Assembly (NCBI GenBank): GCA_019058275.1
Contig: JAHLVW010000071.1
Location: 1-24,346, forward strand
DNA length: 24,346 nt
Origin: Candidatus Heimdallarchaeota archaeon
GTDB taxonomy: Archaea > Asgardarchaeota > Heimdallarchaeia > JABLTI01
Reading direction: 5' to 3'
Part shown: piece by piece, positions 21,990 to 24,346 of the stretch
How positions within the stretch are numbered: position 1 is the stretch's first letter
How the letters are laid out: each line of letters begins with the position of its first letter
The notes under the pieces: model-generated
Told to the model about the DNA's origin: nothing
What the model saw: only the letters and a program-made list of their open reading frames with translations
Database searches by the model: none
Position numbers and translations under genes: made by a program

Positions 21990-22934
21990 TTACTGTTTAT
22001 GTTTAGTAATTGCTAAGTAATTTTTAGTCACTTTGAAACCAAGTTTCTCATATAATTTGTAAGCAACAACATTAGATGTTGTAACTGCAAGACCGATTTT
22101 CTTCATCCCTTCTTCTGAGCAACTTTTTATGATTTGGTTCATAAGTGCTTTACCTAAACCTTTTCGTTGATGATTTGGATGAATGCACACTTCCCCTACA
22201 AAAGCAACTTCAGGGGAATTTGTGAAAACAAAACTTATACCAACCACATTTTCATCAAACAGTATCTGAGGATTAATCTTGACATTGAGACCAGTGAAAT
22301 TATTAGTAAACTTAGCAAACATCTTCTTACTGATTTCTGGATTTCCCATTTCTGGGTAAATAGAAGAATCTGCATGTTCAGGGGGATTTGTATCCCGCAT
22401 GACTGCGAAAAGCTCATCTACCTTTTCTATAGAAAATGGCTCAAAGGTGTATCCTTCTTTCAAATCAGGATCGTTAGGTTCTACCTCATCAATTTCCAAT
22501 AACATTGCAACTCTCGAGAAAAAAGAAAACCCATCTTTTGTAAGCTGTTCCTCAAACGTAGGTTCCTTGTTAAATGGCAATATCTCAGTTTGCCTATAAT
22601 GTTTGAATCCACTCTCAAATACTTTTGATGTTAAAGCTTTGACTAGTTGACTACCACAATCATCTGAATTACAATCAGGATCAATGTAAAATGTAGTAGA
22701 TTCAAGAACCTCTCCTTCAGGTTTACCAGCAATGAATCCTATTGGAATTTCATCATCGAATGCATAAAATAGAATTCTTTCATTCTTCTTCAATAGTTCC
22801 TTAAATTTAGCGACAATGGTTTTAACTATTTCAGGATCCTTAATTCCTCGCTTAAATTCAAGGTAGTCTACAAATTTACACTCAATACCATCAATTGATT
22901 TTATTTCTTTTATCTCTAAAGTCATGATTGGCAA
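21990..22934 (-). CDS. GNAT-family N-acetyltransferase with tandem GNAT domains
   Basis: C-terminal domain VCIHPNHQRKGLGKALM...LAVTTSNVVAYKLYEKLGF; degenerate N-terminal domain FYIDPDCNSDDCGSQLV. Alternative start at ATG 22925. Confidence 0.9.
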   Translation of the reverse strand: MPIMTLEIKEIKSIDGIECKFVDYLEFKRGIKDPEIVKTIVAKFKELLKKNERILFYAFDDEIPIGFIAGKPEGEVLESTTFYIDPDCNSDDCGSQLVKALTSKVFESGFKHYRQTEILPFNKEPTFEEQLTKDGFSFFSRVAMLLEIDEVEPNDPDLKEGYTFEPFSIEKVDELFAVMRDTNPPEHADSSIYPEMGNPEISKKMFAKFTNNFTGLNVKINPQILFDENVVGISFVFTNSPEVAFVGEVCIHPNHQRKGLGKALMNQIIKSCSEEGMKKIGLAVTTSNVVAYKLYEKLGFKVTKNYLAITKHKQ

Positions 22935-23063
22935 AAATCGCTTGGTTATTTTTAAGGATTACATTGGTCTCAGAATTTAGTTCCCTGCTACAACTCTACA
23001 TTAATAAGCATATCGTAATAAAGGAAATATTTCTACAGTAGCAATATCACCAATTTGGCAATA

Positions 23064-23071
23064 TTTATATA
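23064..23071 (+). promoter_or_regulatory. Archaeal TATA box
   Basis: TTTATATA ending 32 nt before ATG 23104, consistent with a short-leader transcript. Confidence 0.55.
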
Positions 23072-23103
23072 CTCTATTGACCTATAATAAAATGTGATAA
23101 AAT

Positions 23104-23487
23104 ATGCGAAAACACAAAAAAAATGAAAAAATGGAACATGGGTTCTATGGTCATCCAATGATACGAAGAAGACCAAGAATGCATCATTTCAGTCCAATAC
23201 ATATGATGCGACATGGAATGCACAGATTTCCAATGGGTGTGCTAGAAGAAATAGAATCAAAAGAAGAAGCAATAGAATTCCTTGAAATGCAAAGCAAAAT
23301 GCTAGACAAACGAAAGAAATACTTGGAAAAAAGAATGGCAAGGTTAGATTCAACAGAAGATGCACTCGAAGATACTATAAAAGAAATTGGAAAAATGAAA
23401 GAATTTTCCCATGAAGAAATGAAGAAAATCATGAAGAAGAACTATAAAGAGTTCATGAAAAAAATGATCGATGAAGATGATTTCTAG
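23104..23487 (+). CDS. His/Met-rich coiled-coil protein, paralog of the C-terminal domain of the adjacent PadR regulator
   Basis: 8 His and 8 Met in the first 45 aa; residues 48-112 align without gaps to PadR residues 142-206. Confidence 0.8.
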   Translation: MRKHKKNEKMEHGFYGHPMIRRRPRMHHFSPIHMMRHGMHRFPMGVLEEIESKEEAIEFLEMQSKMLDKRKKYLEKRMARLDSTEDALEDTIKEIGKMKEFSHEEMKKIMKKNYKEFMKKMIDEDDF

Positions 23488-23613
23488 ACGGGATGAACCA
23501 TATCCAACTTTTTTTTAATTGATGCCAGTCTGAAGGATAATAAAATGAAAATATCCCCAAACTGGAAATACTTTTTTATCTACAAACTAAAAGATTACTA
23601 GTTGGTGAAAGAA

Positions 23614-24237
23614 ATGTTTAGAAGACATCCTCCCTCAAGATTTCATCCTTTCAGACCACCAATGCCTTTTGGTCCTGGAATGATAAAAGACATGAGTCAA
23701 CTAGTGTTTCTTTGGACAATTAGTGAGAGTCCAGATGGCATAACAGGTTATGATCTCTACAAGAACTACGAAGCAAAACAGACCAATGTCTATAGAACAC
23801 TGAAGGAGACGGAAGAGGAAGGGTTCATCACTTCAACAGAGACCATCGTTAAAGGCAGGGCACAGAAGATATACAAGATAACTGAGAAAGGTAGTGAACG
23901 ATTAAAAAACCTCAGAGAAGAGTGGACAAATAAAATAGCTTTTCTTATAGATATTGTCCCACCAGAAAGAGGATATCATCCAATTAAGGGAAAGAAACGC
24001 GAACCAAGGATTATTAGAGATCTAAGAGAGTTAAAGACAAAAGATGAAGTTTTAGATTATTTAGAACATGTAAAAAAATACTATAAAGGAAGGAAGAATC
24101 GCTTGGCAAAAAGAATGGAAAACTTGGATCAAACAGTTAAGGAAGTAGATGAAGTCATTATCAATGTAAACAAACAAGAACCATTCAGTAAGGAAGAAAC
24201 AGAGAAGACTATTAGAGAAATATTAGTGAAAAAATGA
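23614..24237 (+). CDS. PadR-family transcriptional regulator with extended C-terminal coiled-coil domain
   Basis: LVFLWTI...GITGYDL...NVYRTLKETEEEGFI...GRAQKIYKITEKGSERLKNLREEW. Start is likely ATG 23614 after SD GGTGA (TTG 23602 is the alternative). Confidence 0.88.
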   Translation: MFRRHPPSRFHPFRPPMPFGPGMIKDMSQLVFLWTISESPDGITGYDLYKNYEAKQTNVYRTLKETEEEGFITSTETIVKGRAQKIYKITEKGSERLKNLREEWTNKIAFLIDIVPPERGYHPIKGKKREPRIIRDLRELKTKDEVLDYLEHVKKYYKGRKNRLAKRMENLDQTVKEVDEVIINVNKQEPFSKEETEKTIREILVKK

Positions 24238-24346
24238 GTAAATTTCTTATTATAGTTTGCTAATAGGAAAAGTGTTCCAATAAGAAGACCTATTGTTATT
24301 AGACGAGGTCCATCAAGAAGAAGAAGAAGATAAAAAAGAAGGTTAA

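Follow-up and report, generated by a model that had tools for sequence, protein, structure and literature searches.

Organization of the S–PadR locus

We analysed a 24,346-nucleotide stretch of DNA from a Candidatus Heimdallarchaeota archaeon (assembly GCA_019058275.1, contig JAHLVW010000071.1), hereafter the window, which is one complete contig (G000:C66) of a 4.1-Mb metagenome-assembled genome (MAG) that is 93% complete. The final 1.3 kb of the window holds two open reading frames on the same strand, a small gene that we call S and, after it, a gene for a PadR-type regulator. A preliminary description had read S as a copy of the C-terminal domain of its neighbour without a DNA-binding domain, and had proposed a two-gene dominant-negative switch formed by partial duplication. 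Here we argue that S is a paralogue of the C-terminal part of PadR, that the two genes form a conserved module with one candidate operator repeated at both promoters, and that S may act as an anti-repressor. The genes and the features of S are the following:

23104-23487, plus strand: gene S, 127 amino acids (P0001), a paralogue of the PadR C-terminal part without a DNA-binding domain
23094-23098, plus strand: putative Shine-Dalgarno-like GTGAT, 5 nt ahead of the S start codon; GTGA(T/A) is kept in orthologues
23104-23232, plus strand: S residues 1-43, predicted disordered tail rich in His, Met, Pro, Gly, Arg and Phe (predicted local distance difference test, pLDDT, ∼50)
23233-23478, plus strand: S residues 44-125, modelled helical hairpin homologous to the PadR C-terminal domain
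23509-23516, plus strand: T8 tract behind the S stop codon, probably an archaeal terminator; T-runs also follow S in orthologues
23614-24237, plus strand: PadR-type regulator, 207 amino acids from the ATG at 23614

A protein identical to S is encoded on NCBI record JAHLVY010000001.1. In the structural model the helices of S span residues 44-49, 53-96 and 103-125, the last of them ending in an extension with an acidic end that is specific to S and absent from the domain of the neighbouring PadR. Between close genomes, the ratio of nonsynonymous to synonymous substitution rates (dN/dS) is 0.14-0.19 for S as a whole (0-0.15 over its helices, 0.2-0.38 over its tail) and 0.05-0.14 for the PadR gene, indicating that S is a real gene under purifying selection, not a neutrally evolving frame. 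Neither a winged helix-turn-helix (wHTH) nor any Pfam family was found in S, in agreement with the absence of a winged helix first reported, and its matches in Pfam and NCBIfam are chance coiled-coil ones. For PadR, the TTG at 23602 would give an alternative reading of 211 amino acids; the ATG at 23614 is the likelier start, because GGTGA (23604-23608) precedes it and because the same start is called on the NCBI record carrying the identical S. Residue numbers of PadR are given below in the 211-residue reading.

S is a paralogue of the linker and C-terminal domain of PadR

We compared the two proteins directly. Aligned without gaps, S residues 48-112 and PadR residues 142-206 are identical at 22 of 65 positions, which reproduces exactly the hand count of the preliminary description; BLASTP, in a single comparison, pairs S 47-111 with PadR 141-205 (23/65 identical, 58% positives, no gaps, E-value 5e-10). 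The Smith-Waterman score is 114. Shuffled sequences, 5000 of each of four kinds (whole-protein, C-terminal-region-only, both-shuffled and heptad-class-preserving), gave mean scores of 35-42 and a maximum of 83, and a reversed-sequence control scored 48 (Gumbel p 1e-7 to 2e-6), so that the alignment holds against composition-matched controls. A profile-profile comparison by hhalign of 11 S orthologues with 6 PadR orthologues returned a probability of 98.2% and an E-value of 4.8e-14 over 90 columns, S 27-116 being equivalent to PadR 117-206. The shared region thus includes the linker. The linker match claimed earlier is weak when taken alone (4/13, ungapped) and stands as part of this longer alignment, where it fits the linker consensus of the family (alignment A4).

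A word-indexed protein search with S found three close relatives only. When 1.8 billion cluster representatives were searched exhaustively with the profile, only 67 proteins came back at E-values up to 0.001. About 20 of these have the architecture of S, namely a tail, the hairpin and the extra helix with its acidic end (alignment A5), and about 35 are PadR-type proteins of 180-280 amino acids with the hairpin at their extreme C-terminus (A4).

Long Lys/Glu-rich helices, of which both regions consist, are prone to spurious matches, and the chance coiled-coil matches in Pfam could be taken in the same sense; the similarity would then be an artefact of coiled-coil composition, or S would not be a gene. 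We consider this explanation extremely improbable. None of the 5000 heptad-class shuffles came up to the observed score, and the four kinds of shuffle together with the reversed control rule out the composition artefact; the shared region aligns ungapped over 15 sequences (alignment A3), the profile-profile E-value and the dN/dS of S point the same way, and the 67 matches all fall, bar a few repetitive outliers, into the two architectures just described. Sequence comparison thus identifies S as a paralogue of the linker and C-terminal domain of PadR, without the wHTH.

The shared hairpin is an accessory domain of a short PadR core

We next describe what the shared region adds to the regulator, whose parts are the following:

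23674-23955, plus strand: PadR residues 25-118, wHTH and helix 4, modelled as a complete short-PadR (subfamily-2-like) core (AlphaFold2 (AF2) pLDDT >90; Foldseek; profiles)
23956-24006, plus strand: residues 119-135, His/Pro/Gly/Arg-rich linker, low confidence in the AF2 model; also seen in the family alignment
24007-24231, plus strand: residues 136-210, C-terminal domain, modelled helical hairpin common to S and not in Pfam (model, profiles)

The regulator had been called a PadR protein in the preliminary description, and the assignment is borne out by a PF03551 score of 33.3 bits (cut-off 27) over residues 53-102; the same family is matched by 32 of 35 PadR-type representatives. PadR structures also ranked first in a profile search (3l7w, 6e-11; 4esb, 1e-8). 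The AF2 model (pLDDT 87.7) shows the PadR fold, that is helix 1, the wHTH and a long helix 4 within residues 25-118, followed by the linker and by helices at 136-143, 147-191 (45 residues) and 197-210; the hairpins of PadR and of S are both modelled at pLDDT ∼95. By Foldseek, residues 25-118 match 5zi8_B (Rv3488), 4esb (BC4206), 6abt (Listeria), 3hhh and LmrR with target template modelling scores of 0.7-0.8 and root-mean-square deviations of 1.5-2.8. Four of these short PadR proteins (Rv3488, BC4206, LmrR and 6abt) consist solely of the wHTH-plus-helix-4 unit. As modelled, the shared hairpin is therefore an accessory add-on to a short-PadR core.

Assignment to PadR subfamily 1 finds no support. 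PF10400 (Vir_act_alpha_C), which marks that subfamily, is absent from the matches of the regulator (P0002) at E-values up to 1 and is not among the 25 commonest of the 47 families listed for the 35 PadR-type representatives, and the AphA-type and B. subtilis PadR structures align by Foldseek over the wHTH only. NCBIfam gives the regulator sub-threshold PadR-type matches only, among them the Rv3488 and PhaQ models. For the hairpin, zero Pfam family matches were found across 30 S members, the Foldseek search was empty at E-values up to 0.001, and the hairpin profile matched nothing real among PDB sequences; the wide VIA search returned generic helical hairpins only (histidine-kinase DHp, phasin, designed bundles), with Z up to 7.3, which is below the meaningful level for helical models.

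Short-PadR units dimerise through helices 1 and 4, and the core of this PadR probably dimerises without its C-terminal domain. A simple heterodimer in which one DNA-binding domain is missing, as initially imagined, is thus unlikely: residues 25-118 already make up a complete short-PadR unit, and S would act on the accessory domain instead.

We predicted the complex of PadR 22-211 with S 40-127, each with its own family alignment, in three runs and three controls. The score was 0.57 over the three runs and 0.00-0.01 for the controls, a result graded as 'weak support'; at least 70% of contacts are common to the runs, and the partner pLDDT is at least 70. The mark that was passed is reached by 58 of 80 solved complexes and by 2 of 110 mismatched pairs; at scores of 0.60 or less fall only 7 of those 80 complexes together with both passing mismatches, a calibration that is rough here because own alignments were used.

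The pair is a conserved module of probably old origin

Orthologues of both genes were gathered from ten related genomes, and the loci analysed include those of a 140-amino-acid S orthologue (L018, L019, L037 and L038). S is followed by PadR on the same strand at every locus long enough in nine of them (G001-G006, G009, G010 and G011), so that the pair first seen in the window is conserved in related genomes. The distance from S to PadR is 106-168 nt in the orthologous loci, with the exception of G005 (L015, G005:C165), where an 851-nt insertion carries the gene of a 193-amino-acid multi-pass membrane protein on the opposite strand and both operators (see below) are retained. Of 83 genomes from the class, only members of a single family have the pair, which occurs in 9 of the 11 genomes of that family besides G000. 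Within this family genomes have both genes or neither, S and PadR being absent together from G007 and G008. The fused PadR form alone, with no S, occurs in two other families (6/22 and 1/31 genomes). Four distant metagenomic S lineages (26-34% identity) were also found, and in each S is followed by a same-strand gene for a protein of 215-236 amino acids, recorded as PadR in three of the four. The organism labels of S-related loci are Candidatus Heimdallarchaeota MAGs, and two loci are labelled Promethearchaeati and Bathyarchaeia. S and PadR are thus a conserved two-gene module of one Heimdallarchaeota-labelled Asgard family and of some uncultured relatives.

We then built a tree from the 74-column domain of 19 S and 34 PadR-type sequences, a short alignment with a midpoint root. 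All S sequences lie on one side of a branch with support of 94/67, recovered in 93% of bootstrap trees. The S clade is sister (98/97) to two PadR-type representatives, P0025 and P0027, which have an S-like C-terminal extension and no S gene directly upstream, and the PadR proteins that adjoin S fall elsewhere in the tree. A single, ancient origin of S is a lead given by this topology. The sister position of the S clade to another PadR sub-clade, together with the absence of homogenisation within genomes, suggests that S is old and probably derives from a PadR paralogue that lost its wHTH. Of the partial duplication first proposed, the paralogy stands, and a recent tandem copying of the present neighbour is improbable.

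The genes that flank the pair vary; here they encode a GNAT and a 2-oxoacid acyltransferase, and elsewhere an Arf-like GTPase, a TPR protein or glycine-cleavage H-like proteins. The gene after PadR encodes a 276-amino-acid stand-alone catalytic domain of a 2-oxoacid dehydrogenase acyltransferase (L030 9248-10078 on the NCBI record; in G004, L012) and is found in this species and its closest relative only. At the very end of the window, positions 23866-24346 overlap the start of another contig (G000:C70:1-481; 481 bp, 96% identity). A second PadR copy, '93% identical', on that contig was considered and rejected: past the overlap, C70 is collinear with the NCBI record (98.8%), and the two contigs represent the same locus. 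The assembly break inside the PadR gene is probably due to strain heterogeneity.

A 21-bp palindrome marks both promoters and has no other strong copy in the genome

A palindrome of 21 bp, ATATnnCCAAnTTGGnnATAT, lies upstream of both genes, where it was found as part of a 29-nt direct repeat. The promoter features are the following:

23044-23064, no strand: candidate operator O-S, the palindrome ATATnnCCAAnTTGGnnATAT, 16/16 specified bases; position weight matrix (PWM) score 30.9, best in the genome
23064-23071, plus strand: TATA box of S (TTTATATA), an octamer found again behind the palindrome in 9/10 orthologues
23551-23571, no strand: candidate operator O-P, the palindrome again, with 14/16 specified bases; PWM score 26.5, exceeded in the genome by O-S only; directly before the T-rich element
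23572-23581, plus strand: putative T-rich TATA-like element of the PadR promoter, at the same position in orthologues

The centre of the palindrome stands 50-53 nt ahead of the start codon at both genes, and the last base of O-S overlaps the TATA box of S, an element that the preliminary description had picked out and whose conservation in orthologues gives it weight. The palindrome precedes S at 10/10 orthologous loci (15-16/16 specified bases) and the PadR gene in 8/9 orthologues (14-15/16). It is also present before S in the distant loci L041-L043, and before both genes in L043. The sole orthologue that lacks it before PadR is L017 (G011; best 9/16), whose S operator is intact (15/16); its PadR start codon may have been called at the wrong place, or the gene may no longer be autoregulated.

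A PWM built from 14 distinct sites was used to scan the whole genome and locally shuffled versions of it. After O-S and O-P, the next-best hit scores 16.4, compared with maxima of 14.8-20.5 in the shuffled genomes. The next hits, C33:55251 and C48:48628 (∼16 bits), lie inside coding regions and at the level of the shuffles, and further members of a regulon were rejected on these grounds; one-mismatch pattern hits outside the module in relatives are not conserved as promoter sites. O-S and O-P are the only strong sites in the genome.

The palindrome also occurs apart from S. The S-less fused homologues L023 and L021, from another family, carry a closely similar palindrome that abuts the TATA box before their own gene, and a pattern scan of five family-f3 genomes of S-less relatives found a site before each PadR gene in four of the five. 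Because S-less relatives show the same palindrome-TATA arrangement, the palindrome belongs with the PadR family, and it is most simply read as a PadR autoregulatory operator, of which a further copy stands at the S promoter in those lineages that possess S. Operators of PadR proteins are usually inverted repeats (PMC12817078), and the palindromes at both promoters and at those of the S-less homologues are consistent with putative PadR-type binding. One further locus from the pattern scan, L046 (G033:C49:144000-147500), has two near-identical operator-like sites 630 bp apart inside a duplicated stretch that encodes repeated His/Pro/Gln-rich frames, with no clear gene model.

A T-run, or a hairpin and then a T-run, follows the S stop codon; runs of at least six T were found in G000, G002, G003, G004, G005 and G009. 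These T-runs, and the G005 insertion that leaves both operators in place, indicate that S and PadR are two separate transcription units. An exact 11-nt repeat, ATAATAAAATG, lies at 23084-23094 and 23537-23547, downstream of the S operator and TATA box and upstream of the PadR operator. On the other side of S, a gene for a 314-amino-acid double-GNAT acetyltransferase (21990-22934, minus strand) is transcribed divergently, and the 169-nt spacer contains O-S. This neighbour is found in the closest relative, G004, and not in other genomes, so that shared control of the double-GNAT gene by O-S is possible only locally.

The arrangement of the two operators, ∼507 bp apart, bears on the direction in which S might act. 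S could be a co-repressor or architectural partner that stabilises DNA binding by PadR or bridges PadR dimers on the two operators, giving negative feedback and not a switch. A spacing that is fairly constant in most orthologues (∼500-590 bp) would suit such a bridge, and the extra C-terminal helix of S could make a second contact; homology and linkage speak for this arrangement as they do for an anti-repressor. Against it, the insertion in G005 alters the spacing and both operators are kept, and the S-less relatives of PadR have a single operator and evidently function without S. We regard a co-repressor role as unlikely.

Histidine- and methionine-rich tails

The N-terminal tails of S proteins contain 10.5% His, 10.4% Met, 10.8% Pro, 11.5% Gly, 10.9% Arg and 8.3% Phe, compared with 1.6% His, 4.3% Met and 0.5% Pro in the helical part of S family-wide. 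PadR-type proteins have N-terminal tails of related composition (His 9%, Met 6%, Pro 21%, Gly 8%, Arg 9%, Phe 9%). Four PadR-type members (P0030, P0039, P0054 and P0067; A4) have long N-terminal tails with Cys-Cys and His runs, and three others (P0035, P0049 and P0065) have a CxxC...CxxC zinc ribbon at their end, behind the hairpin; from their sequences, these seven look like candidate metal-sensing variants of the family. The Cys/His runs and the three zinc-ribbon members are what suggests that the His/Met/Cys-rich tails might sense metal or redox state, a conjecture drawn from composition.

These tails, like the operators, also fit another view of S, according to which it is merely a regulated effector of a self-repressed PadR circuit, for instance a small metal or stress protein, with the tail doing the work, the hairpin serving self-association only and no contact being made with PadR. 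A PadR regulator typically acts on its own gene and on a neighbouring one. With strong operators at S and at the PadR gene only, S would be the sole target that is not the regulator, and its operator is the better conserved of the two; the His and Met content of its tail and the lack of matched evolution between the two domains would also be expected of an effector. What this view leaves without a reason is that an effector should be a paralogue of the accessory domain of its regulator, and that the shared domain is the most constrained part of S, with a dN/dS below that of the tail. The predicted complex, scored well above its controls at the level of weak support, argues in the same direction, and the similar His/Pro/Cys-rich tails of PadR-type proteins point to a shared sensory role. 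We hold this alternative to be possible, and on the whole unlikely.

A proposed regulatory circuit

The reading that we prefer is that PadR represses both promoters and that S contacts the accessory domain and antagonises PadR, and we give it a probability of about 0.45. That S binds PadR at all is inferred mainly from homology, strict linkage and common control. A PadR dimer would bind the palindrome and occupy the edge of the transcription factor B recognition element (BRE) and TATA box, repressing its own gene and S. S would dock through the shared hairpin on the C-terminal domain of PadR, forming a hetero-oligomer that replaces or adds to the hairpin-hairpin contacts. Docking would alter the hold of the repressor on DNA, most likely weakening it, so that S would be an anti-repressor. 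The resulting circuit would be a double-negative, self-reinforcing switch, as in SinI/SinR. The His/Met-rich tail is the likeliest place for a signal to enter, for example a metal or the redox state, although this is pure conjecture.

Several observations weigh against this anti-repressor reading. The domains of S and of the PadR of the same genome show no concerted or matched evolution: identity is 24% on the diagonal and 26% off it, and 635 of 720 permutations are as good. The complex prediction may have passed merely because the two hairpins are homologous and hence alike. If the PadR core dimerises alone, as is probable, binding of S need not abolish DNA binding. Were the regulon limited to this pair, the circuit would lack an output as long as neither S nor PadR did more, which favours S as an effector; the count of sites comes from a scan of a 93%-complete MAG that weak or half sites would escape.

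A more elaborate form of the anti-repressor reading would make the circuit a closed, two-promoter, double-negative switch, in which PadR and its accessory-domain paralogue act on nothing but each other and in which the His/Met-rich tails (Cys/His-rich on many PadR relatives) sense metal or redox state, deciding whether S titrates the repressor. Taken with all of its parts, this version is doubtful.

Almost no circuits of Asgard archaeal transcription factors have been described experimentally. Here sequence alone lays one out, comprising a regulator, a domain paralogue, two promoters and one 21-bp operator without any other strong copy in the genome, and with two proteins and two 21-bp sites it is small enough to be rebuilt in vitro. 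Independently of the role of S, the analysis defines, in a sub-family of PadR proteins, a C-terminal domain that lacks annotation (the 67 cluster representatives given above) and flags its unusual His/Met/Cys/Pro-rich tails as candidate sensory parts. Should S antagonise PadR, then bacteria, archaea and eukaryotes would each have a documented case of a regulator titrated by a copy of its own domain, and the principle would be more than a eukaryotic elaboration. Should the switch reading be true, archaea would have in S their first antagonist of the SinI/SinR or microProtein kind for which an operator is defined, and the PadR family would gain a new sensory domain.

Comparison with known systems

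The closest likeness in logic is with SinI/SinR (and SlrA) of B. subtilis, where the small antagonist is the interaction domain of the repressor without its DNA-binding domain and is encoded immediately upstream in the same orientation. At our locus, likewise, a small domain paralogue without a DNA-binding domain lies directly upstream of the repressor gene. The symmetrical sharing of one operator that is seen here is, to our knowledge, not known for sinI and the operator of SinR. SinI binds SinR through a shared helical-hook domain, sinI being immediately upstream of sinR, and the tight heteromer blocks operator binding (PMC3917956). The proteins themselves differ: SinR is a bacterial Xre-type helix-turn-helix protein with helical hooks, unrelated to PadR in sequence and fold, and neither our PadR-type regulator nor S, which has no family match, belongs to that helical-hook group. 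SinI has ∼57 amino acids and no disordered tail, unlike S, whose binding to PadR is a prediction only.

Among PadR-like proteins, the dyads of HAAS with a PadR-like wHTH (Ravi et al. 2024) are also conserved pairs of a PadR-type wHTH and an all-helical partner, for which signalling by protein contact was proposed (PMC11237479), and S too always lies beside the gene of a stand-alone PadR-like wHTH. In contrast to the HAAS partners, S is a soluble protein without fused membrane or sensor domains, and it is a paralogue of the PadR's own domain, which the HAAS partners are not described to be. The HAAS domain has three helices, with a kink in the third at a conserved GxP. None of 30 S members matches the Pfam models DUF1700, DUF1129 or DUF1048 at E-values up to 0.01, no conserved GxP kink is found in the S alignments A1 and A5, and the HAAS structure 2O3L is not listed in the profile search of PDB sequences at E-values up to 10. 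In Streptomyces, LysR2/LysR1 resembles our proposal in that a PadR-family repressor is freed from its inverted-repeat operator by a protein that lacks a DNA-binding domain (PMC12817078); LysR2, however, belongs to the TenA family, forms a tetramer and has no relation to its PadR, and the target of the system is a biosynthetic cluster of 15 transcripts.

Eukaryotic microProteins (Id, LITTLE ZIPPER, miP1a/b) are small single-domain relatives of larger multidomain transcription factors and act through non-productive complexes (PMC4807768, PMC7584889). S has their structural hallmark, a small single structured domain related to a domain of a larger multidomain regulator, and stands at the upper edge of the class with its 127 amino acids and 43-residue tail. 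Those microProteins titrate a dimerisation domain that is required for DNA binding, whereas the domain shared here is an add-on to a core that probably dimerises alone. Archaea already have a comparable case in the demi-FFRPs of Pyrococcus, which are the C-terminal assembly domain of an Lrp/AsnC-type regulator without its DNA-binding domain (PMC8143865). Unlike S, they belong to the RAM-domain family and fold and bind amino-acid ligands, and the same paper does not describe fixed neighbours under a shared operator.

The preliminary description knew of no archaeal example, a view that has to be given up: regulator paralogues without a DNA-binding domain are already known in archaea as demi-FFRPs, and the logic and gene order are those of sinI-sinR, classical in bacteria. 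What is new here, in Asgard archaea, is that a sub-family of PadR proteins carries an accessory domain not described before, that a paralogue of this domain exists as a separate protein, and that the candidate operator stands in twin copies at the two genes.

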